Below, in pieces: positions 10,348 to 56,365 of a stretch of 64,000 nucleotides of DNA. The notes beneath the pieces were generated by a model, which worked only from the letters and a program-made list of their open reading frames with translations, had not been told where the DNA came from and did no database searches. The stretch comes from Scyliorhinus canicula (lineage: Eukaryota), in assembly GCF_902713615.1 (NCBI RefSeq), contig NC_052160.1, forward strand, positions 25,862,083 to 25,926,082. The letters are read 5' to 3'. The position numbers were made by a program, and so were the translations under genes. Position 1 is the stretch's first letter, and the number at the start of each line of letters is the position of its first letter.

Positions 10348-13300
10348 AGTTATACCGTCAATCCACTGTGAGACCGAGAGAACGAGTGAGTATATGGCTT
10401 TATTATCCAAGAACTCGCCTGCCAGTGTCTGCTGTACAATGAGTGCCACCCACAGGCGGCCGCTCTATATATCGCCCCGGTGAGGGCGGAGCCAGAGGCG
10501 GAGCCCATCGGGGTTCCAGTACAGTAGCTGGAAGGAGACCGTATTATCATTTCCAGGTCATAGGTCACAGCACTACACAGACAGTTCATACTTAGGTGAA
10601 TACATTCATCACATTCACCCACTGTTAAAAAAAACAAGTCCAGCGGGGGTGACGTGGGGTCATCAAATATTCAGTCTGTCTGGAGGCCGGATCATTCTTT
10701 TAGACCTCCTCAGCTCTGGCGATGCAGTGGGCACGGTTGTTGCAGGTGGTGACTCCGGGGCTGTGTTGTCTGGAGCTTGGATTTCAGTCCAGCGTGTCAG
10801 AGACGGTTAAGGGGTGGTGGGTGGCGGCAGTGCAGGCGTGGGACAATACAGGAGACCCAGGGGGTCATAAGGGGCGGTGCGGGAGGCGGTAGGCAGCGGG
10901 GAGGGGGGCGCATTGGCAGGGGAACCAGCTGGTGCCAGGTCCAGAACGTATTTTGCTGTCCGTCTTGGTGCGCGACGTAGGTGTACTGGGGGTTGGGCGT
11001 GCAGCAGCTGGACCCACTCGACTAGGGGGTCGGTCTTATGGCTCCTCGCATGCTTCCGGAGAAGGACAGATCCCGGAGCCATCAGCCAGGATGGAAGCGA
11101 GACCCCGGAGATGGACTTCCGAGGAAAGACAAACAAGCGGGCGTGAGGGGTCTCGTTCGTGGCTGTGCAGAGGAACGATCTAATGGAGTGGTGTGCGTCG
11201 GGGAGGACCTCCTGCCAGCGGGGGGTCGGGAGACTTCTAGACCGGAGGGCCAGAAGGACGGCCTTCCATACTGTCACATTCTCCCTCTCCACCTGCCCGT
11301 TTCCCTGTGGGTTATAGCTCGTAGTCCTGCTCGAGGTGATGCCCTTACTGAGCAGGTACTGATGCAGCTCATCGCTCATGAACGATGTGCCCCGGTCGCT
11401 GTGGACGTACGCAGGGAAACCGAACAGTGTGAAGATGCTGTGCAGTGCCTTTATAATCGTGGCCGAGGTCATGTCAGGGCAGGGGACAGCGAAGGGGAAG
11501 CGGGAGTACTCATCAATGACGGTGAGAAAGTATATATTACGGTTGGTGGAGGGGAGGGGCCCTTTGAAGTCAATACTGAGGTGCTCAAAGGGCCGGGAGG
11601 CCTTTACCAGGTGAGCCTTGTCTGGCCGGTAGAAGTCCGGTTTGCACTCTGCGCAGACTTGGCAGTCCCTGGTCATGGCCTTGACCTCCTCAGTGGAGTA
11701 GGGCAGATTGCGGGCCTTAATAAAGTGGGTAAGCCGGGTGACCCCCGGGTGACAGATGTCATCGTGGATAGCCCGAAGTCGGCTATCTTGCACGCTGGCG
11801 CATGTGCTGCGGGACAGGGCATCTGGGGGCTCATTGAGCTTCCCAGGACGATACTTGATATCGTAATTGTAGGTGGAGAGTTCGATCCTCCACCTCAAGA
11901 TTTTGTCATTCTTAGTTTTGCCCCGTTGTGCGTTGTCAAACATAAAGGCTACCGACCGTTGGTCGGTGACGAGGGTGAACCTCCTACCGGCTAGGTAGTG
12001 CCTCCAGTGCCGCACAGCTTCCACTATGGCTTGTGCTTCCTTCTCGACTGAGGAGTGTCAGATTTCGGAAGCGTGGAGGGTTCTAGAGAAGAAGGCTTGC
12101 CCGCCTGGTTGAGTGTGGCGGCAAGGGCGACATTTGACGCATCGCTCTCTACCTGGAAGGGGACGGACTCGTCCACCACGTGTATTGCGGCCTTGTGCTG
12201 CGCATGTGCTGCGGGATGTCGGCCTTGATGCGGCTGAAGGTCGAGTGGGCCTCAGCCGTAGGGGGAATGTGGTGGTTTTAATAAGTGGGCAGGCTTTGTC
12301 CGCATAGTTGGGGACCCACTGGGCGTAGTAGGAGAACAGTCCCAGGGATCGTTTGAGGGCCTTGAGGCTGTGGGGAGGGGGAGTTCCGTGAGGGGGCGCA
12401 TACGGTCGGGGTCGGGCCCCAGGACTCTGTTCTCCACGACGTAGCCGAGGACGGCCAGTCGGGTATTGCGGAAAACGCACTTCTCTTTGTTATATGTGAG
12501 GTTGAGGGATCGGGCGGTCTGGAGGAACCTCTGGAGGTTGGCGTCATAGTCCTGCTGATCGTGGCCGCAGATGGTAACATTGCCCAAGTACGGGTATGTA
12601 GCCCGCAACCCGTACTGGTCCACCTTTCGGTCCATCGTTCTCTGAAAAACCGAGACCCCATTAGTGACGCGGAAAGGGACCCTGAGGAAGTGGAAGAGTC
12701 GGCCGGCTGCTTCGAAGGCAGTGTAGTGGGGCTCTTCCGGGTGGATTGGGAGCTGGTGGTAGGCTGACTTCAGATCGACCATTGATAACATCCGATACTG
12801 TGCGATCTGGTTGACCATCTCCGCTATGCGGGGAGGGGGTACGCATCCAGTTGCGTGAACCGGTTAATTGTCTGGCTGTAGTCCACAACCATCTGATCCT
12901 TTTCCCCGGTCCGGACGACCACCACTTGAGCTCTCCCAGGGGCTGTTGCCGGCCTCAATGATCCCTTCACTCAACGGTCGCTGGACCTCCGTCAGTTCCG
13001 AATGCTTGGGAACTGTACCGCCTGCTCCTGGTGGCAACGGGATTACAGTCAGGAGTGAGGTTCGCAAAGAGGGAAGGAGAGGCAACCTTGAGGGTCACGA
13101 GGCTGCATACCGTGAGGGGGGTAAGGGTCCATCGAACTGTAGGGTCAGGCTCCGGTGACTGCAGTGGAAGTCTAATCCAAGCAGTAGGGGGGGCGCAGAG
13201 GTGGGGGAGGATGTACAGCTTAAAACGAGCGTACTCGCCGCTCTGCATCACGATGTTAGCGAGTCAGTACCCCCGGATCTGTATCGAATGGGATCCGGAG

Positions 13301-15030
13301 GCAAGGGAGATTGTTTGGAATGTGGGGTAGATGTGAAGGGAGCAGTGCCTTACCGTGTCAGGGTGAACAAAGCTCTCCGTGCTCCGGGAGTCAAAAGACA
13401 GGGGTCTCGTGCCCGTTGACCCGGACGACCATCATGGAATTTTTCAGGTGCTTTGGCTGCGACTGGTCGAGGGTGACTGCGCCAAGCTGAGGGTAGTATG
13501 TGTGGCCGGCGGCATCGGGGTCACAAAATGGCGGCCCCCATGAGTCACACGTGTTGGGCTGGGTCGAAGATGGCAACCAAGATGGCCGCCCCATGAGTCG
13601 CACGAGGCTGATGACGCGTCTGAAGGGGACGTTCCCGGCTGGCACGCAGCCACATTGCGGGGCCTGTGGGTCCATGGGTCGGGCCTGGTGAGTTTTTGAT
13701 TTCTGGGCTTTAGGTCGGCCCAGACAGACTCTGGCGAAGTGTCCCTTTTTGCCACAGTCGCTGTGCGGGCTGGGCAACGCTGCCGGGGGTGTTGACGCTG
13801 GCCGCAGAAGTAACACTGCGGTTCCCCGGTCTGGACGGGCAGCCTCGCGGCACAGGCCTGTGATGTAGGCGGGTCCGGTGGGGGCCGCGACGGTGGCATT
13901 CACGAGGGGTTCGCCGGGTCTGCAGTCAACGCACTGAGGCTTTGGTAGGCCACCTCTAACGAGGTGGCTAGTTTTACTGTGTCCCGCAGGTCAGTGGTCC
14001 CGTTTTCCAGCAGGCGCTGCCAGATGTAGTTAAATCGGACCCCAGCCACGTAGGTGTCCCGGATCTGTAGCTTCATGTGTTCCTCTGCACATCCCGATAG
14101 TTGCAGTCCCTCGCGAGTAGGGTCAGGTTTTCCAGATACTCGTCCAGCGATTCCCCGGCACGTTGACGGCGAGTAGTGAGGAGGTGTCACGTAAACACCT
14201 CGTTTACGGGCTTCGCGAAATGCGCCTTGAGGATCGCGACCGCCGCCTCGTACGTGGCTGCTTTCTCGATCATCATGGAGATTCGATGGCTCACCCGAGC
14301 GTGGAGGAGTCGCAGCTTGAGGGTTTCAGAGGGAGGCGTTGCGGAGGAATCGAGGTAGGCCTCGAAACAGAGAAGCCAGTGTTCAAAGACTTTCTCGGCC
14401 TCTGTCGCTCGCGCGTCGAGTTCGAACTTATCTGGCTTTAGAGTGGCTTCCATGGTGCTGTCGCTGGATAATAAATTGTTATACCATCAATTCACTGTGA
14501 AACCGAGAGAACAAGTGAATATATTGCTTTATTATCCAGGAACACGCCTGCCAGTGTCTGCTGTACAATGAGTGCCACCACAGGTGGCCGGTTGTATATC
14601 GCCCCGGTGAGGGCGGAGCCAGAGGCGGAGCCCACACTTCCAAGGAAAGGTTGAGGGTGCTCGGCCTTTTCTCATTAGAACAGAGAAGGATGAGGGGCAA
14701 CTTGATAGAGGTTTATAAGATGATCAGGGGAAATAGATAGAGTAGACAGTCAGAGACTTTTTCCTCGGGTGGAACAAACCATTACAAGGGGACCTTTAAG
14801 CGGCTATTGGAGAGGTACATGGATTACGGTAGAATGACGGGGTGTAGATTAATTTGTTCTTAATCTAGGACAAAAGTTCGGCACAACATCATGGGCCGAA
14901 AGGCCTGTTCTGTGTTGTATGTTCTATATTCTATGTTCTAGTACCTGTAAGTAGACCGTATTATAATTTCCAGGTCATAGGTCACAGCACTTTACAGACA
15001 GTTCGTACTTAGGTGAATACATTCACCACA
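10348..15030 (-). mobile_element. Full-length degenerate Gypsy/Ty3 LTR retrotransposon (gag-PR-RT-RH-IN)
   Basis: LTRs 10348-10613 and 14477-15030 (roughly 90 percent alike); 5-bp TSD GCCCC (10343-10347, 15031-15035); gag ATG at 14453 with CCHC knuckles; RT (DLKSAYHQ, YPYLGN); RNase H (TDQRS); integrase (IDFKGP, SDRG, GNGQVERE); frameshifted. Confidence 0.93.
14635..14940 (+). mobile_element. CR1-type LINE 3' fragment inserted in the Gypsy 5' LTR
   Basis: LRVLGLFSLEQRRMRGNLIEVYK-type coding remnant and (GTTCTAT)n tail; absent from the other LTR. Confidence 0.85.
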
Positions 15031-15319: not shown

Positions 15320-15962
15320 CCAGATCCAACTCCTGCTCTCCATCCTGACCTGCCCCACTGTCCCACAGATGCTGCTCTCCATTCAGACCCCGATGTCCAT
15401 GATGGAACCATCAATTCAGCGAACACGTGTAGTTGAATCTGAACAGAGGCTTTAATACACTTACAACAGAGCCAGCCTATTTGTCGTTGAACTCCAGATG
15501 ACTGCAGGCTGGCTCCAAGGCACTGATCTTTATACATTGGTCCCAGGGGGAGGAGTCCTGGGCGGAGCCAAGGGAGGAGCCCAGTACAAACTCTTGCGTA
15601 CTCCCAGAGCGACTCCCCCTGGTGGTCGGATAGTGCAACTGCACTTATAATGGTGGATAGTGAACACATATACACGGAGTTATATTGGCAACTATGTACA
15701 GCATTGATCTTACAACGGGTAGATAACGAACATATATACATGGAGTGATATTGGCAACTATATATAGTGTGAATCACATTCACCACAGTCCATTCAGATC
15801 CTGATGTCCATTCAGATCCCAATGTCCATTCAGACCCCGATGTCCATGGAATTTATCCAGACCCACCCCACTTTCTCACAGACACTGGTTTTCATCCTGA
15901 CCCTGAACTCCCATCCAGACCCACCCCATTCTCCCCAGATGCTGCTCTCCATTCAGATCCTA
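15320..15962. repeat. Degenerate tandem repeat (about 18-bp CCATTCAGACCCCGATGT and longer units) interrupted by the solo LTR
   Basis: Repeated ccattcagatcc / cagatgctgctctccattcaga units on both sides of the LTR. Confidence 0.7.
15400..15787 (-). mobile_element. Solo Gypsy LTR
   Basis: TG...CA termini; 5-bp TSD GTCCA (15395-15399, 15788-15792); shares ACCATCAATT and CACCACA ends with the neighbouring Gypsy LTRs. Confidence 0.88.
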
Positions 15963-16262: not shown

Positions 16263-17867
16263 CCAAAAAGATGAGGTTTTGGGTGTCTTGAAAAATATTA
16301 AGGTAGATAAGTCCCCAGGGCCTGATGGGATCTACCCCAGAATAGTGAAGGAGGCTAGAAAGGAAATTGCTGAGGCCTTGACAGAAATCTTTGGATCCTC
16401 ACTGTCTTCAGGTGATGTCCCGGCGGACTGGAGAATAACCAATGTTGTTCCTTTGTTTAAGAAGAGTAGCAAGGATAATCCAGGGAACTACAGGCCGGTG
16501 AGCCTTACGTCAGTGGTAGGGAAATTACTGGAGAGAATTCTTCGAGACAGGATCTACTCCCATTTGGAAGCAAATGGACGTATTAGCGAGAGGCAGCATG
16601 GTTTTGTGAAGGGAGGTCATGTCTCACTAACCTGATAGAGTTTTTCGAGGAGGTCACAAAGATGATTGATGCAGGTAGGGCAGTGGATGTTGTCTATATG
16701 GACTTCAGTAAGGCCTTTGACAAGGTCCCTCATGGCAGACTGGTACAGAAGGTGAAGTCACACGGGATCGGGGTGAGCTGGCAAGATGGATACAGAACTG
16801 GCTCGGTCATAAAAGGCAGAGAGTAACAATGGAAGGGTGCTTTTCTCATAAGAGGGCTGTGACTAGTGGTGTTCCGCAGGGATCAGTGCCGGGACCGTTG
16901 CTGTTTGTAGTATTTATAAATGATTTGGAGGAAAATGTAACTGGTCTGATTACTAAGTTTGCAGGCGACACAAAGGTTGGTGGAATTCTGGATAGCGATG
17001 AGGACTGTCAGAGGACAGAGCAGGATTTAGATCGTTTGGAGACTTGGGCGGAGAGATGGCAGATGGAGTTTAATCCAGACAAATGTGAGGTAATGCATTT
17101 TGGAAGGTCTAATGCAGGTAGGGAATATACAGTGAATGGTAGAACTTTCAAGAGTATTGACAGTCAGAGAGATCTAGGTGTACAGGTCCACAGGTCACTT
17201 AAAGGGGCAACACAGGCAGAGAAGGTAGTCAAGAAGGCATACGGCATGCTTGCCTTCATTGGCTGGGGCATTGAGTATAAAAATTGGCAAGTCATGTTGC
17301 AGCTGTATAGAACCTTAGATAGGCCACACTTGGAGTATAGTGTTCAATTCTGGTCGCCACACTACCAGAAGGATGTGGAGGCTTTAGAGAGAGTGCAGAT
17401 TTACCAGGATGTTGCCTGGTATGGAGGGCATTAGCTATGAAGAGAGGTTGAATAAACTCGGTTTGTTCTCACTGGAACGACGGGGGTTGAGGGGTGACCT
17501 GATAGAGGTCTACAAAATTATGAGGGCATAGACAGAGGGGATAGTCAGAGGCTTTTTCCCAGGGTAGAGAGGTCAATTACTAGGGGGCATAGGTTTAAGG
17601 TGCGAGGGGCAAGGTTTAGAGGAGATGTACGAGGCAAGTTTTTCACACAGAGGGTAGTGGGTGTCTGGAACTCGCTGCCGGAGGAGGTGGTGGAAGCAGG
17701 GACGATAGTGACGTTTAAGGGGCATCTTGACAAATACATGAATAGGATGGGAATAGAGGGATACGGACCCCGGAAGTGCAGAAGATTTTAGTTTAGATGG
17801 GCAGCATGGTCGGCACAGGCTTGGAGGGTCGAAGGGCCTGTTCCTGTGCTGTACTTTTCATTGTTCT
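16263..17867 (+). mobile_element. Younger CR1 (HER1-like) LINE, 5'-truncated RT region
   Basis: KSPGPDGIYPR, NYRPVSLTSVVGK, SGVPQGSV, KFAGDTK; CR1 3' tail; candidate TSD TTGAAT. Confidence 0.93.
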
Positions 17868-29269: not shown

Positions 29270-31789
29270 TTAAAAAAAAAAATTTTTTTTATTGGAATTT
29301 TTTACAGAAAATATAAATCATAACGACAAACAATGAAATGCAACAAAATAACCCATAATAACTGTAACACCCCCCAGACCGTATCGACACATGTATCACA
29401 TCCCCCCAACCCCAATGAACAACAAAAGAACTTAAAAATAAATTTAAATTAAATAAACAAACATAGTCATCGTCCCCCCCCTTTTCCCTCCCCCTTCCCC
29501 CCCCGGGTTGCTGCTGCTACTGTCCCCGTACCCTATCGTTGAGCCAGAAAGTCGAGGAAAGGCTGCCACCGCCTAAAGAACCCTTGTACCGACCCTCTCA
29601 GGGCGAATTTGACCTTCTCTAGCTTAATGAAACCCGCCATGTCATTGATCCAGGTCTCCACGCTTGGGGGCCTCGCATCCTTCCATTGTAGCAAGATCCT
29701 TCGCCGGCCTACTAGGGACGCAAAGGCCAGCACACCGGCCTCTTTCGCCTCCTGCACTCCCGGCTCCACCCCAACCCCAAAAATCGCTAGTCCCCATCCT
29801 GGCTTGACCCTGGATCCCACCACCCTCGACACCGTCCTCGCCACCCCCTTCCAGAACTCCTCCAGTGCCGGGCATGCCCAGAACATATGGGCATGGTTCG
29901 CTGGACTCCCCGAGCACCTGACACACCTGTCTTCACCCCCAAAGAACCTACTCATCCTCGTCCCAATCATGTGGGCCCGGTGCAGCACCTTGAATTGGAT
30001 GAGGCTAAGCCGCGCACACGAGGAGGAAGAATTAACCCTCTCCAGGGCATCAGCCCATGTCCCGTCTTCGATCTGTTCCCCCAGTTCCCCCTCCCACTTA
30101 GCTTTCAGCTCCTCTACTGACGCCTCCTCCGCCTCCTGCATAACCTTGTAGATATCAGATATCTTCCCCTCTCCAACCCAGACCCCCGAAAGCACACTGT
30201 CACTCACCCCCCTCGCGGGAAGCGAAGGGAATCCCTCCACCTGCCGTCTAGCAAATGCCTTTACCTGCAGATACCTGAACATGTTTCCCGGGGGAAGCCC
30301 AAATTTCTCCTCCAACTCCCCCAGGCTCGCAAACCTCCCATCAATAAACAGGTCCCTCAGCTGTCTGATGCCCGCTCTGTGCCAACCCTGAAATCCCCCA
30401 TCAATGTTCCCCGGGACGAACCTATGGTTCCCCCTTAACGGAGCCTCCATCGAGCCCCCCACCTCTCCCCTATGTCGCCTCCACTGCCCCCAAATCTTGA
30501 GGTTAGCCGCCACCACCAGACTCGTGGTATACCTCGTAGGAGGGAGCGGCCACGGCGCCGTTACCAGGGCCCCCAGGCTTGTATCTCCACAGGACGCCCT
30601 CTCCATCTGTTTCCATGCTGCCCCCTCCCCCTCCATTACCCACTTGCGCACCATCGACACATTGGCCGCCCAATAATACCCCGAGAGATTGGGTAACGCC
30701 AGCCCCCCCCCATCTCTACCCCGCTCCAAGAAGACCCTCTTCACCCTCGGGGTCCCATGCGCCCAAACAAAGCTCATGATGCTGCTAGTCACCCTTCTAA
30801 AAAAGGCCGTAGGGATAAAGATGGGCAAACACTGAAAAAGGAACAAGAACCTCGGGAGAACCGTCATTTTGACAGACTGCACTCTACCCGGCAACGATAG
30901 CGGCACCATGTCCCACCTTTTAAATTCCTCCTCCATCTGCTCCACCAGCCTGGTAAAATTAAGCTTATGGAGAGGCCCCCAACTCCTGGCCACCTGCACC
31001 CCCAGGTATCTGAATCTCTTCACTGCCCTCTTAAATGGGAGTCTCCCAATTCCCTCCTCCTGATCACCCGGGTGTACTACAAATACCTCGCTCTTGCCTA
31101 AATTTAACTTATAGCCCGAGAAGCCCCCAAATTCCGCTAACAGCTCCATCACCCCCGGCATTCCCCCTTCTGGATCCGCCACATACAACAGCAGGTCGTC
31201 CGCATACAGCGATACCCGATGTTCCTCCCCACCCCGCACCAGACCCCTCCATCTCCCTGACTCCCTCAACGCCATAGCCAAAGGTTCAATCGCCAGTGCA
31301 AAGAGCAAGGGGGACAGGGGGCACCCTGCCTGGTCCCACGGTAGAGCCTAAAGTACTCCGATCTCCTTCCATTGGTAACTACACTTGCCATCGGAGCCGC
31401 GTAGAGCAGCCTCACCCATTTGATGAACCCCTCCCCGAATCCGAACCACTCCAGCACCTCCCACAGGTACCCCCACTCAACTCTATCAAACGCCTTCTCT
31501 GCATCCAGCGCCACCACTATCTCCGCCTCCCCCTCCACTGCCGGCATCATAATAACATTTAGCAGTCTCCGCACATTCGTGTTGAGCTGCCGTCCCTTGA
31601 CAAATCCTGTCTGATCCTCGTGTATCACCCCTGGCATACAGTCCTCTATCCTGGTGGCCAGGATCTTCGCCAGCAACTTAGCGTCAACATTGAGGAGCGA
31701 GATAGGCCTGTATGATCCACACTGCAAGGGGTCCTTATCCCGCTTCAGGATCAGAGAGATCAGTGCCCGCGACATTGTCGGGGGCAAAG

Positions 31790-36576: not shown

Positions 36577-39383
36577 AAAGCGAGCAGAATGCTGGTGCAC
36601 CAGCTTCGCAAGAGTGAGGCGGCCAGGGAAATTGGGGAAGTACGGGATAAGGAGGGCAACACGGTCATAGACCCAGAGTAGGCGAACAAAGTATTTAGGG
36701 TGTTCTACGGTAAATTGTAGGAGTCCGAGCCCCCGCCGGGCGGGGAGGGGATGAGGCAATTCATGGACCAACTGAGGTTTCCAGAAGTGGAAGAGGATCT
36801 GGTGGAGGGACTGGGGGCCCCGATAGAGCTGGAGGAGATGGTAAAGGGGCTGGGAACATGCAGTCGGGCAAGGCCCCAGGGCCGGATGGCTACCCTGTAG
36901 AATTCTGCAAGAAATTTTCAGAGCTGCCGAGGCCACTCCTGCTAAGGACCTTTAATGAGGCCAAAGAGAGAGGGCCCCTCCCCCCAACAATGTCACAGGC
37001 TTCGATTTCACTCATCCTCAAACGAGAGAAAGACCCGCTACAGTGTGGATCTTATAGACCGATATCGCTCCTGAACGTAGATACCAAACTGCTGGCCAAG
37101 ATCTTGACTGCTAGAATTGAGGACTGTGTCCCTGGGGTGATAGGGGAGGATCAGACAGGCTTGTCAAGGGCAGGCAATTGAACTCCAATGTACTGAGGTT
37201 CCTAAACATCATCATGATGCCCTCAGTGGGAGGGGAGGCAGAAGTAGTGACAGTGATGGATGCAGAGAAAGCCTTTTGATCGGTTGGAATGGGAGTACCT
37301 GTGGGAGGCGCTAAGAAGGTTCGGGTTCAGTGAGGGGTTCATAGGCTGGGTCCAGCTACTTTATCAGGCCCCCGTGGCAAGTGTGTGCACGAACAGGGTG
37401 AGGTCGGAATACTTTAGGCTCCACCAGGGAATGAGGCAGGGGTGCCCCCTCTCCCCGTAATTATTCGCCCTTGTGATAGAGCCGCTGGCTATAGCGCTGC
37501 GGACTTCAAAGAACTGGCAGGGGTTGGTTTGGGTGGGGGGGGGGGGGGGGGAGAGCAGCATCGGGTCTCACTTTACACGGATGATCTGCTCCTATACATC
37601 TTGGACCCACTAGAGGGGATGGGGGAGGTCATGCAGATTCTGAGCGACTTTGGCAATTTCTCAGGGTACAAGCTAAATGAGAAGAAAAGCGAGATGTTTG
37701 TGATCCAAGCTAAGGGGCAGGAAAAGAGACTGAGAGAGCTTCCGCTGAAGATGGTCGAGAAGAATTTTCGGTACCTAGGGATACAGGTGGCTCGAAATTG
37801 GGATGCCCTCCACAAGCTTAATCTATCTCGGCTGGTAGAACAGATGGAGGGGGACTTCAAAAGGAGGGACATGCTCCCGCTATCTTTAGCGGGGAGGGTG
37901 CAGACTATTAAGATGACGGTTCTCCCCAGATTCCTGTTCGTCTTCCGGTGCCTTCCCATCTTCATCCCCAAGTCCTTCTTTAAGCGGGTGAACAAGATCA
38001 TCTTGGGATTCGTTTGGCCAAATATGACCCTGCGAGTAAAGAGACTGTATCTGGAGCGCAGTCGGGGGGTGGGAGGGGGGCTGGTGCTGCTGAACTTTTG
38101 CAGCTACTACTGGGCGGCTAACATAGCCATGATTAGGAAATGGGTGTTGTGGGAGGGGTTGACGTGGGAGAGGTTAGAGGCGGCCTCATGCAAATGTACC
38201 AGCCGAGGGGCACTTGTAACGGCACCTCTGCCGTTCTCGCTGGCCCACTACTCCTCCAGTCTGGTGGTGGTGGCAGCATTAAAGATCTGTGGTCAGTGGA
38301 GAAGGCACAGGAGGGCGGAGGGAGCCTCAGTTTGGTCCCGGGCAAGATAGACGGAGGGTTTCAAAGCTGGCATAGGGCAGGCACTAAAAGGATAGGGGAC
38401 CTGTTCATAGATGGGACCTTTCCCAGCCTGAAAGCGCTGGAGGAGAAATTTAGTTTGCCCCCTGGAAATGCTTTCAGATACCTTCAGGTACATGCCTTTC
38501 TCAAAAACAGGTGGTATCATTTCCGCTGCTACCCCCTCGCAGGATACAGGATAAGGTGGTCTCCAGCACCTGGGTAGCGGAGGGGAAGGTGTCCATCTAC
38601 CAGGAACTTCAGGAGGCGGAGGAAGCCCCAGTCGAGGAACTCAAGGGCAAATGGGAGGAGGAGCTAGGCGGGGACCTGGATGCGGGCCTGTGAGCCGATG
38701 CCCTAAACAGGGTCAATTCCGCTTCATCATATGCCAAGCTTAGCTTAATCCAGTTTAAGGTGGTCCACCAGGCACACTTGACGGCAACCAGGATGAGCAA
38801 GCTCTTTGGGGTTGAGGATAAATGGGCAAGGTGTGCGGAAAGCCCTGCAAATCATGTCCATATGTTCTGGGCATGCCCGGCTCTTAAGGGATTCTGGCAG
38901 AGATTTGCTAAGGCAATGTCCAAGATCTTAGACACGCAGGTGGTGCCTAGTACATAGATAGCGATCTTTGGTGTGTCAGACGATCCGGGAGTTCAGGAAG
39001 CAAAAGAGGCCGACGTCTGGCCGTTGCCTCCCTGGTAGCCCGGAGATGGATCCTTTTAATGTGGAGGGACTCGAAGCCCCCGAGTGTAGAGACCTGGATT
39101 AGTGACATGGCTGGGTTTCTCAGTCTCGAGAAAATAAAGTTTGCCTTGAGAGGGTGCATGGCAGGGTTCTCTCTGAGGTGGCAGCCGTTCCTCGACTTTC
39201 TAGGAGAGCAGTAAAGGTCAGCAGCAGCAGCATCCCGGGGGGTAGGGGGGTTGTTACATAGTACTGTTCTTTTCTCTGTATATATGGTTAACATTAATTT
39301 TGTTATGTTAATTGTTGCGTACTGTTATGCAAAAAAAATTATGTTTTTGACAAAAAGTTGAATAAAAATAATTTTTTAAAAAG
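36577..39383 (+). mobile_element. 5'-truncated L1-clade LINE in UQCRC2 intron 9 (antisense to gene)
   Basis: KASRMLVHQLRK, SGKAPGPDG, YTDDLLLY, C-terminal zinc-knuckle-like motif; AATAAA and A tail. Confidence 0.93.
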
Positions 39384-46556: not shown

Positions 46557-48367
46557 TTTTTAAAAATAAGTTTTATTGGAATTTTTTACAGAAAATATAA
46601 AAATACAAGTATAGCAACAAGCAGTAATATGCAACTAACAGCCCCATAACACCCACAATTCCCCCCAAACCGTAACATCACATGCATCACACTCCCCCCC
46701 CTCCCCCCCCCCCCCCCCCCCCCCAACAAGAGAACTTAACCATAAATTAAAATTAAATAAATCAAATTTAAATAAAATAAGCAAACATAATCAACCCCCC
46801 CCCCCCCCCCCCCCCCCTCCCCGGGGGTTGCTGCTGCTACTGTCCCAGTACCCTATCGTTGAGCCAGAAAGTCGAGGAAAGGTTGCCACCGTTTAAAGAA
46901 CCCTTGCACCGATCCTCTCAGGGCGAATTTGACATTCTCAAGCTTAATGAAGCCCGCCATGTCATTGATCCAGGTCTCCACGCTTGGGGGCCTCGCGTCC
47001 TTCCATTGTAGCAAAATCCTTCGCTGGGCTACTAGGGACGCAAAGGCCAGCACACCGGCCTCTTTCGCCTCCTGCACTCCCGGCTCTGCCCCAACCCCAA
47101 AGATCGCAAGTCGCCATCCTGGCTTGACCCTGGATCCCACCACCCTTGACACCGTCCTCGCCACCCCCTTCCAGCACTCCTCCAATGCCGGGCATGCCCA
47201 GAACATATGGGCATGGTTCGCTGGACTCCCCGAGCACCTGGCACACCTATCTTCACCCCCAAAGAACCTACTCATCCTCGTCCCAGTCATGTGGGCCCTA
47301 TGCAGCACCTTGAATTGAATGAGGCTAAGCCGCGCACACGAGGAGGAAGAATTTACCCTCTCCAGGGCATCAGCCCATGTCCCGTCTTCGATCTGTTCCC
47401 CCAGTTCCCCCTCCCACTTCGTTTTCAGCTCCTCTACTGACGCCTCTTCCACCTCCTGCATAAGCTTGTAGATATCGGATATCTTCCCCTCCCCAAACCC
47501 CCGAGAGCACCCTGTCACTCACCCCCCTCACGGGGAGCGCAGGGAATCCCTCCACCTGCCGTCTAGCAAATGCCTTTACCTGCAGATATCTAAACATGTT
47601 CACCGGCGGGAGCCCAAATTTCTCCTCCAACTCCCCCAGGCTCGCAAACCTTCCGTCGATAAACAGGTCCCTCAGCTGTCTAATGCCCGCTCTATACCAT
47701 CCCTGAACTCCCCCATCCATATTCCCCGGGACGAACCTAAGGTTCCCCCTTAACGGAGCCTCCATCGAGCCCCCCACTTCTCCCGTATGTCGCCTCCACT
47801 GCCCCCAAATCTTGAGGGTAGCCGCCACCACCGGACTCGTGGTATGCCTCGTGGGAGGGAGCGGCCACGGCGCCGTTACCAGGGCCCCCAGGCTTGTATC
47901 CCCACAGGACGCTCTCTCCATCCGTTTCCATGCTGCCCCCTCCCCCTCCATCACCCACTTACGCACCATCGACACGTTGGCCGCCCAGTAGTACCCCGAG
48001 AGGTTGGGCAACGCCAGCCACCCCCCCCATCTCTACTCCACTCCAAGAAGACCCTCTTCACCCTCGGGGTGCCATGCGCCCAAACAAATCCCATGATGCT
48101 GCTGGTCACCCTTTTAAAAAAGGCCCTAGGGATAAAGATGGGCAAGCACTGGAAGAGGAACAAGAACCTCGGGAGAACCGTCATTTTGACGGATTGCACT
48201 CTGCCCGCCAGCGATAGCGGCACCATGTCCCACCTTTTAAATTCCTCCTCCATCTGTTCCACTATTCTGGTGAAGTTAAGCTTATGAAGAGCCCCCCAAC
48301 TCCTGGCCACCTGCACCCCCAGGTACCTGAAACTCTTCACTGCCCTCCTGAAGGGGAGCCTCCCAAT
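46557..48367 (-). mobile_element. 5'-truncated L1-clade LINE inserted into a SINE in UQCRC2 intron 2
   Basis: Close relative of the 29.3-32.1 kb copy; TSD TTCTTTTTTCCCACTT (46541-46556, 48368-48383). Confidence 0.94.
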
Positions 48368-49174
48368 TTCTTTTTTCCCACTTAAGGGGTAATTTAGCGT
48401 GGCCAATTCACCTACCCTGCACATCTTTTTGGGTTGGGGGGGTGAGACCCACGCAGACACGGGGAGAATGTGCAAACTCCATACGGACAGTGACCCAGGG
48501 CCGGGATCAAACCCGGGTCCACTGTACCACCTTGCCGTCCTTAACATCCTGAGTCTACAAGAGTTTTCAACTTAATGTCCTGTCATGATTTGGGTCACAC
48601 TTTTATCTCAACATTGAAATTATCTGTTTAATAAGCTAATTGGCTCTTATATTTTGCTACATTACAATGATAATTACAGTTCAAAGGAAATTCACTAGAT
48701 GTGAAGCACTTTGGATCATCTTGAGAAAAGGTGCATTTAAATCATCAGGGCATGCAATGTCTTAGTTCACTCAGTGCAAAGTATTTCTAATATTCTATTC
48801 CAACTGCTTTCCTCCATGACTTGTCTCCTTCCATTCCTCTTAAAGTACCAACGCTTCGCTGAGTAGTTCCACGGGGTCTATGTTTCCTCTGGTATCTTGC
48901 CCTAGTGGTCAATCATCACACGCAGGCCTAAACAGTGAGGAAGCTGAAAAGCCACAATTACGTCCCTACTCCGTCCGGATTTCATACCGACAAAAAACCA
49001 AACCTATGACCTTCTAGTCTGCAGACTGAGCGATTGACTGGATCAATGAACCGAGCCCCAATCATCTTGAATTAAGATTTTTTTTTCTGAATCCTGTGTA
49101 CAATAATCAAGAGGTACAAATGCTCAGGCCCCACAAATATTTTTAAACATGTGATTAGAATTGCAGTAACACAT

Positions 49175-53767: not shown

Positions 53768-53812
53768 AACGAGATTCGCGAGGGCAGAATTCACTCCCTT
53801 CACCGACCTCAT
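53768..53812 (-). CDS. UQCRC2: UQCRC2 exon 1 (MRSVKGVNSALANLV, presequence)
   Basis: ATG in CpG island, donor gtaagt, phase 0 into exon 2. Confidence 0.85.
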
Positions 53813-53828
53813 CGTTTCAGCGGCAACC

Positions 53829-54226
53829 CACCGGCGGCCCGATTGTGACACACACAATATGGCGGCTCACCGGCGACCAGATCCTTGACACACACAATAT
53901 GGCGGCTCACCGGCGACCAGATCCGTGACACACACAATATGGCGGCTCATGGCGACCCCATCTGTGACACACACAACATGGCGGCTCACCGGCGGCCCCA
54001 TCTGTGACACACACAATATGGCGGCTCACCGGCGGCCCCATCTGTGACACACACAATATGGCGGCTCACCGGCGGCCCCATCTGTGACACACACAATATG
54101 GCGGCTCACCGGCGACCCGATCTGTGACACACACAATATGGCGGCTCACCGGCCACCTGATCTCGTGACACACACAATACGGCGGCTCACCAGTGACCAA
54201 ATCAGTGACCCACACAATATGGTGGT
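53829..54226. repeat. 40-bp minisatellite, about 10 copies (GTGACACACACAATATGGCGGCTCACCGGCGGCCCCATCT)
   Basis: Units start at about 53845, 53885, 53925, 53964, 54004, 54044, 54084, 54124, 54165, 54205. Confidence 0.95.
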
Positions 54227-55599: not shown

Positions 55600-56365
55600 T
55601 TGTTAACATTTTGTTTGCACTTCAGCCCCACGCTCCTGATCTATGGGCATCTGGTGCGGTGGGGGTGGGGGGTGCGGGGGGGGGGGGGCGGGGGAGGCAG
55701 AGGACCTCCTCATGAATGATGTACCATCAATTGAACGCGAGATGAGTTGCTGAACAAAAGTATGGCTTTAATCTACTACATGTTAGCCCTGCGGTTGATT
55801 ACAGTAGGACGACCGCCGGGCGTACTGGGTATTTATACCCCGCCCTGGAGGTGGGGTTAACTCAGCCTCTTGACCAATCAGGGAGCCATCACATGACTGG
55901 TCTCAACCAACCGGTCGAGAGGCACATGACTGACCAGGGCCAATGGTAAGCCGGTGTTCTGCCCCAACGGCAGGCAGCTATGCTAATCATACCACCACAA
56001 TGAACCTGCTCCTGGGCCTGGCCAAACTTGCCATAAACAGGTCCAGGCAGTGGGCGGCTGAGGGGGTCATCCGACCGGACTGTCTGGCCGTCTTTCGCGG
56101 CTTTATTCGCAACTGGGTATCCCTGGAGAAAGAGAGAGCGGTGTCCATAGGCACACTCAAGGCCTCCCATGCTCGGTGGGCACTGCAAGGGCTGGACTAT
56201 ATTACATACCCTGATTCTCACATTTTGGTTTGATGGGTTTTTAAGTTTCTGTTTCCTCTTCATTCCTTTTGGACTGTGCTCCGATTGTTCTTTGGGAGCG
56301 GCCCCTTTTGATTTGTCCACCAGTTAATTTTTGTTCTTCTGTTCAGTTGATGGGCCTTATTAAAA
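55600..56365 (+). mobile_element. Tx1-type LINE ORF2 3' fragment (split by the solo LTR)
   Basis: EDLL(M)NLLLGLAKLAINRSRQ...FRGFIRNWVSLEKERAVS...RW C-terminal motif. Confidence 0.7.
55717..55999 (-). mobile_element. Solo Gypsy LTR between UQCRC2 and SNU13
   Basis: TG...CA termini; TSD ATGAA (55712-55716, 56000-56004); TATAAA on the - strand; CCAAT boxes. Confidence 0.88.

Follow-up and report, generated by a model that had tools for sequence, protein, structure and literature searches.

A Gypsy lineage of Scyliorhinus canicula with a primer-binding site complementary to its own LTR, which very probably primes reverse transcription with its own RNA

How does an LTR retrotransposon start reverse transcription when the sequence after its long terminal repeat (LTR) is not a primer-binding site (PBS) of the tRNA type? 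The question is raised by a decayed Ty3/Gypsy element on the minus strand of a 64,000-nucleotide stretch of the genome of Scyliorhinus canicula (contig NC_052160.1 of assembly GCF_902713615.1, positions 25,862,083 to 25,926,082 of the forward strand). We call the whole of this stretch the window and give positions in its coordinates (Table 1). The original prediction for this locus was that the PBS of the element pairs with its own LTR over the poly(A) signal, and that this one helix could provide priming without tRNA, silence the 5' poly(A) signal, or both.

The element has the two LTRs, the target duplication and the PR-RT-RH-IN order of Ty3/Gypsy, and its best match among solved structures is the Gag-Pol of Ty3. 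Its nearest named homologs are found in rays and sharks, followed by crustaceans and moths. Full-length relatives encode a single Gag-Pol of about 1,200 amino acids with two Cys-His arrays, which are still partly recognisable in the gag of the window element, and most of them carry the reverse transcriptase motif YLD(N/D)(V/I)T. Of 258 aligned bases, 239 are the same in the 5' and 3' LTRs. The U3 insertion, which only the 5' LTR carries, ends in a short tandem repeat and resembles what we take to be the 3' tail of a LINE. Elsewhere, the window holds a tandem array of about ten 40-nt units (53804-54225), remnants of LINE-type reverse transcriptases (16721-17434, 29533-31347, 37418-38350 and 46853-48571), two segments that are about 92% alike (29475-31003 and 46795-48320), and numerous SINEs with tRNA-like heads, which belong to one or two families (3427-61400).

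Table 1. Coordinates of the window element, of the solo LTRs of its sister families and of three palindromic mini-elements elsewhere in the genome.
Feature	Position	Strand	Remarks
Decayed Ty3/Gypsy element	within the window	-	PBS-LTR pairing at its 5' end
5' LTR	15030-14477	-	about 265 nt without insertion; TG...CA ends
U3 insertion	14645-14940 (edges approximate)		about 290 nt; later than the LTR; in 5' LTR only
TATA-like box	14592-14598	-	decayed in 5' LTR; intact in 3' LTR and sister copies
Predicted transcription start	14569	-	initiator-like A, 30th base from TATA T; inferred
Self-primer segment	14528-14539	-	3' end is the AATAAA hexamer; predicted cut at 3' edge
R/U5 loop	14478-14527	-	short GCC/GGU helix, U5 stem-loop, 7-nt bulge with LTR-terminal CA
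PBS	14464-14475	-	exact complement of 14539-14528, 1 nt past the LTR
gag	13440-14453	-	broken: stop at codon 89, frameshifts; 3' limit approximate
pol	10660-13440	-	PR-RT-RH-IN order, no chromodomain; split over several frames by stops and frameshifts; limits approximate
Polypurine tract	10614-10625	-	decayed; intact form in copy L266
3' LTR	10613-10348	-	terminal CA now CT
Target duplication GGGGC	10347-10343 and 15035-15031
Solo LTR, sister family	15400-15787	-	target duplication TGGAC; full-length relatives have a 13-nt self-complementary PBS
Solo LTR, second sister family	55717-55999	-	target duplication ATGAA; full-length relatives have a 14-nt self-complementary PBS
Palindromic mini-elements L337, L317, L356	G000 C12:29085546, C2:142956501, C9:108691614		412-483 bp

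After the end of the 5' LTR (14477) comes a single A (14476) and then the 12-mer TTTATTATCCAG (14475-14464), which is the exact complement, on the minus strand, of CTGGATAATAAA (14539-14528), the LTR segment with AATAAA at its 3' end. A complement of at least 12 nt was obtained in 1 of 20,000 dinucleotide shuffles of the 3' 169 nt of the LTR. No TGG follows the 5' LTR and the gag ATG (14453) stands 24 nt past it, both as originally described, and the TATA-like box, placed then about 55 nt ahead of the paired segment, was found to start at 14598, i.e., 59 nt ahead. In folding predictions of the 136-nt region the PBS-LTR helix is present in both the minimum free energy (MFE) and the centroid structures, and the stability of the region is ordinary (z = -1.03). 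The third base of the neighbouring GCC/GGU helix is altered in this copy.

A smaller AATTG/CAATT inverted repeat, which had also been noted across the U5 boundary, is present as well. It is invariant in 26 aligned copies from the S. canicula genome and therefore provides no evidence from covariation; it was not seen at the LTR ends of distant relatives. In the window the repeat spans the LTR end (14492-14474), and in many families it is lengthened to an 8-bp hairpin. This hairpin stands in competition with the initial bases of the PBS, was seen in 4 of 21 folds, and might conceivably act as a switch.

The check proposed for the pairing was covariation in sister families, and there the pairing is kept through changes on both sides. 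A gag search of the genome gave 33,497 candidates, of which 150 were scored and 30 fetched; among the 30 fetched loci, subfamilies differ on both sides of the helix. The pairing is also kept in the families of both solo LTRs in the window, in which the PBS is the complement of the family's own segment ending in ATTAAA. A pattern composed of the LTR end and the start codon, with the PBS left unspecified, has at least 3,106 matches in the genome, against 6 for the reversed control. We took the first 100 listed matches and left out 10, of which six had no gag (five are L309-L313 and one is apparently the 3' LTR of L280), one was the junction of a neighbour, and three had lost the hexamer by deletion. 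In the remaining 90 copies, each of PBS positions 1-13 pairs with the copy's own LTR in 76-90 copies, and pairing falls sharply past position 13 (76 copies at position 13, 41 at 14, 17 at 16). At the variable positions 7, 8 and 9, pairing with the own LTR holds in 84, 83 and 80 copies, respectively, compared with cross-element rates of 0.30, 0.37 and 0.43. These copies contain 21 distinct types of perfect 12-mer, and each type follows its own LTR. In an alignment of 26 representatives (A2), picked mainly for their intactness, 8 of the 13 pairs change on both sides, with a covariation of 0.378 against 0.085 for shuffles and at most 0.055 for slid controls; this alignment consists mostly of copies already known to pair, which inflates its percentage of paired cells, and the unbiased counts are those of the 90 copies. 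As judged from these sequences, the self-complementary PBS characterises the lineage as a whole. A double change in L080, considered as a private one, was rejected as such: it is common to L277 and marks a minor sub-lineage. In tandem arrays (L275/L276, at G000 C1:74204470-74215993, and L137), a second or 3' LTR again precedes a PBS.

How exact was the pairing when the elements inserted? Both LTRs are available for 60 copies, and in these, 22 of 691 PBS sites depart from the base on which the LTRs agree. Seven of these departures come from one copy with a deletion, and without it they number 15 of 679 (2.2%). The LTRs themselves differ from each other at 29 of 708 sites, a decay of 2.0% per copy. 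Because the mismatch of the PBS equals this decay after insertion, newly inserted copies had an effectively perfect complement as their PBS. The helix is present in the MFE fold of 20 of the 21 sequence types. Beside the duplex, the GCC/GGU helix and the 7-nt bulge are nearly invariant (97% of cells paired in A2, the biased set), the U5 stem varies across folds, and no conserved helix was seen 3' of the PBS.

These data bear directly on the explanation that a tRNA or a tRNA half is the primer and the match to the LTR is incidental. Such priming is the rule for mosquito elements of the Mag lineage, with PBSs for tRNAs of Leu, Ser and Arg according to the accessible text of PMC3286476. Here, however, none of 93 PBSs has TGG within its first 6 nt, 39 distinct PBS 13-mers match at most 5 nt of 17 tRNA sequences (an incomplete set of 5 isotypes, and a partial test for tRNA halves), and the 21 PBS types each track their own LTR. 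The tRNA explanation is thus largely refuted, and we give it next to no weight. In a control Gypsy lineage of the same genome, the LTR end could be resolved at 7 of 20 loci, all with a PBS of the TGG type, and the self-complement at these seven ends is only 4-6 nt long. This control lineage (L437, L441, L443, L449, L453-L455) is abundant and has LTRs of about 630 nt; its PBS is presumably of the tRNA-Pro type. The sushi-like profile PF16297 had no match in the S. canicula genome, several matches of profile PF24626 adjoin loci of the tRNA-primed lineage, and a scan of viral contigs gave one weak match. The proposal that the helix serves as a tRNA-independent primer is well supported by the covariation and by the lack of a tRNA-type PBS, and we consider it very likely that the lineage primes reverse transcription with its own RNA.

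The pairing is found far beyond this genome. Of 73 metagenome loci, 28 had enough sequence ahead of gag, and 25 of these have a helix of 11-19 nt that starts 1 nt past the CA of the LTR, in 16 types. Pairing amounts to 7.9 of 8 within elements and 4.6 of 8 across them. The other three loci have no helix (two of them with little or misplaced upstream sequence). Directly past the helix stands ACC or GCC in 23 of the 25 relatives, and GCG or TTC in the others. In one distant type (L151, 39% identity) the end of the helix does not resemble a hexamer. In L092, L098, L113 and L121, also distant, the helix reaches or covers the start codon of gag.

Might the helix only mask the 5' poly(A) signal, or regulate the translation of gag, while something else primes? 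It is true that in the S. canicula genome the whole A(A/T)TAAA lies inside a helix that can form only at the 5' LTR, and that in several distant families the helix extends to the gag AUG. Yet there is no other primer site, since the helix fills the PBS position 1 nt past the LTR, and the near absence of mismatches at insertion is more exact than masking needs. Moreover, in 6 of the 16 distant types the helix ends in a non-canonical hexamer, and two of these have A(A/T)TAAA in the loop, outside the helix. Because of these six types, masking is not the general reason for the helix and is unlikely to be sufficient on its own; a role of the helix without priming seems to us very improbable. Masking would more likely be a side benefit of a priming helix in the families that have A(A/T)TAAA within it, and the helices over the gag AUG could tie priming to translation control. 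In HIV-1, which is primed by a tRNA, a local R/U5 poly(A) hairpin encloses the 5' hexamer, whereas the partner strand of the hexamer in the focal lineage is the PBS itself.

If the primer is the element's own RNA, its length depends on where the transcript begins. Only 36 of the 90 copies have a strict TATA spaced 72-77 nt ahead of the hexamer's end, and the commonest position of an initiator is +32/+33 from the first T of the TATA (17 copies). Such a start would put the helix about 30 nt inside R and give a 5' fragment of 42-46 nt. In three runs of raw RNA reads, chosen by species label, the largest family shows a pile of read starts at +9/+10 from the TATA (22 and 5 molecules, in two runs of one study), which is 22 nt upstream of the predicted start, with no pile at +32 and none at the edge of the helix. 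The pile may result from the clipping of reads of sister subfamilies or mark a real upstream start; with either start, the paired segment is still internal. Reads of family B, at low depth, have neither a start pile nor an end pile.

The original prediction had proposed pairing with an internal segment of R as a variant of the mechanism of Tf1, in which the primer is the RNA's first 11 bases and RNase H cuts between bases 11 and 12 (PMC7175516, accessible text). The plain Tf1 arrangement would have the transcript start at the 5' edge of the helix and its first 12-14 nt serve as the primer. The sharp fall of pairing past position 13 would agree with this, and a 5'-terminal primer is the arrangement of all self-primers studied in the accessible literature. 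But upstream of the hexamer end there are 72-77 nt to the TATA, the initiator stands at +32/+33, read starts do not pile up at the helix edge, and the aberrant copies described below cluster at 37-46 nt, so that we consider a plain Tf1 arrangement quite improbable. The variant has fared better: the spacing of TATA and initiator and the end points of the aberrant copies support it, with the start itself being predicted. Promoter spacing, aberrant ends and read starts all point to a start at least 30 nt upstream, and the helix probably involves an internal part of R rather than the 5' end of the transcript.

Aberrant copies probably preserve traces of the primer. In L266, a short copy with two LTRs and a 5-bp target duplication, the PBS passes into 63 nt of LTR sequence in inverted orientation. 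A search with three patterns for junctions of this kind gave 49 places in the genome, and 44 of them were fetched. The length of the inverted stretch is 16-21 nt in 8 of these, 31 nt in 1, 37-46 nt in 9, and 54-68 nt in 3 (of one family), and it runs into U3 in 23, with L327 reassigned by eye from the short to the long aberrant class. The nine copies of 37-46 nt end at +31 to +40 from the TATA, beside the commonest initiator, and 9 of the 13 end points in the range of 22-76 nt fall within a single stretch of 10 nt (scan-corrected p = 0.002 under a uniform null). In seven of the nine a 5' LTR stands upstream, in one case internally deleted, and the same seven rejoin their own gag or pol at seven different places. 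The three copies of 54-68 nt end at +8, +13 and +22 from the TATA, past the predicted start.

The longest class includes five two-ended palindromic LTR copies, of which three (L337, L317 and L356) are flanked by exact 5-bp target duplications. Their layout is LTR, PBS, and inverted R and U3, with the tip of U3 at both ends. As for the other two, L346 occupies the 3' side of an element, and one end of L348 is damaged. Because the target duplications are exact, L337, L317 and L356 must have formed before integration, and since the palindromes integrated as such, it was during reverse transcription that the PBS end snapped back onto its own R. To judge from their sequences, these three are apparently integrated snap-back products. 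The class of 37-46 nt would correspond to plus-strand synthesis up to the end of a capped RNA primer, followed by a wrong jump. The class that reaches U3 needs a DNA template, and thus snap-back, because an RNA primer cannot template U3; snap-back alone could also make all the aberrant classes, including that of 37-46 nt. In a test for a late origin from the copy's own 5' LTR, over 422 sites in nine copies, we counted 9 differences in the aberrant copy, 5 in the 5' LTR and 5 in the 3' LTR, small numbers that fit an origin of the aberrant copies at insertion. A look-up of the literature for such copies found nothing. In L316 (1200-1500), L345, L348 and L330, the U5 loop between the arms of the helix seems to be in inverted orientation, with the rest of the element on the opposite strand. 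Such an outcome would be expected if the template switched from one helix arm to the other.

The aberrant copies fit priming in cis and in trans equally well. In trans, the same LTR segment would be supplied by another molecule, for instance a short RNA made from a solo or 5' LTR, terminated at the poly(A) signal and then trimmed, or else a second genome in the same particle, through its 3' R. The exact coincidence of the primer end with the poly(A) hexamer would suit such a source, as would the prevalence of solo LTRs (47 of 60 LTR matches, two of the 60 being the window queries, have no PBS after them). Against it, the near-invariant GCC/GGU helix and the 7-nt bulge only make sense in a cis fold, although this argument is a weak one as their columns do not covary, and the cis helix forms in 20 of the 21 folds. 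All in all, we regard priming in trans as unlikely. From the sequences, we think it probable that the lineage uses an internal LTR segment and that its primer is a capped 5' RNA fragment of about 44 nt, cut in cis.

We observed the pairing, its covariation across families and hosts, the lack of a tRNA-type PBS, and the integrated aberrant copies. In the cis mechanism that we infer around them, transcription would begin about 31-33 nt past the TATA and the leader would fold into a helix of 12-14 bp, stacked on the 3-bp GCC/GGU helix across the 7-nt bulge that holds the terminal CA. A cut would then fall at the hexamer's 3' edge, made probably by the RNase H of the element; Tf1 and the constant position of the helix edge both suggest it. 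This would yield a capped fragment of about 44 nt with its last 12-14 nt paired. Reverse transcriptase would extend this primer by about 51 nt to give the minus strong-stop DNA, and the first jump would use only the stretch between the hexamer and the poly(A) site. Plus-strand strong-stop synthesis would then copy the primer, so that the PBS would be rewritten from the LTR in every cycle, which would explain why PBS and LTR change in lock-step. The aberrant copies would result from over-copying at this step, or from that DNA snapping back onto its own R.

How does this compare with known self-primers? Tf1 and Tf2 of Schizosaccharomyces pombe, Tj1, Tosmo1-3 and the Tf1/sushi group likewise have, right after the 5' LTR, a PBS complementary to their own LTR-encoded RNA. 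The central duplex and the predicted cut at its edge are alike, as may be the adjacent U5 helix, and for Tf1 a 'pretzel' of three duplexes is described in the accessible text of bioRxiv 2022.12.06.519325. In the focal lineage, however, the poly(A) hexamer forms the end of the paired segment, which is probably internal (about 30 nt past the predicted start); the primer would have a length of about 44 nt and an unpaired 5' part, the effective R would shrink to the stretch past the hexamer, and there is no chromodomain. Neither 4 full-length relatives nor the precomputed domain annotations of 120 listed homologs gave a Chromo match. Because it lacks a chromodomain and probably does not use the very start of its RNA as the primer, we place the lineage outside Tf1/sushi.

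The Mag lineage is characterised by two Cys-His arrays in Gag, a short LTR and a 5-bp target duplication, and all three features are found in the focal lineage. It further shares with Mag (clades A, B and C, with SURL, CFG1 and Jule; Cigr-1 is listed with Mag) a Gag-Pol of about 1,200 amino acids and hosts across animals. The tips of its LTRs match the motifs of Mag C (PMC3601003, accessible text, Table 3) at 7 of 8 positions each, at the start of the 3' LTR and at the end of the 5' LTR. The difference lies in the PBS, which is not of the tRNA type found in the mosquito Mag elements. This is thus probably a lineage outside the chromoviruses and related to Mag, a placement made by the LTR tips, the knuckles of Gag and the target duplication rather than by a tree with named references. 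Searches of the Atlas, representative and PDB sets returned no clade name, and the reverse transcriptase motif had no match in four of the five supplements of PMC6238403, those searched.

Self-priming has also been predicted for plant TAR elements (Ty1/Copia) and Tcn1, from complements of the post-LTR sequence of at least 10 nt in the 5' LTR (PMC6317226, accessible text), which implies that the mechanism arose more than once. Those elements belong to another superfamily or to the chromoviruses and have plant hosts, and the accessible text of that study describes no link to a poly(A) signal. In the accessible literature (including PMC4600332, PMC6934838, PMC8220671, PMC8556966, PMC2774666 and bioRxiv 2023.10.26.564294; subscription papers, Repbase, GyDB and bioRxiv supplements fall outside this scope), self-priming was found only for Tf1/sushi-related elements and plant TAR/Tcn1. 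Self-priming as the rule in an abundant animal lineage that is not a chromovirus, with an internal primer ending at the poly(A) signal, therefore appears to be new.

The broadest account, in which the balance tips slightly in favour, is that of an old, animal-wide Gypsy lineage whose tRNA-free priming would be independent of Tf1/sushi. Its capped 44-nt primer would be cut after the poly(A) signal, a single helix would mask the signal, set the cut and be rewritten into the PBS, and mis-copies would record the 5' end of the primer. The lineage is abundant in S. canicula, as the LTR-end matches (at least 3,106) indicate, and it implies a further origin of priming without tRNA. Such priming would likely allow escape from control by tRNA fragments. 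The self-complementary PBS also explains why finders that rely on tRNA-based PBSs would return nothing for these elements. Finally, thanks to the aberrant copies, genome sequence by itself is enough to test the length of the primer and the strong-stop step.
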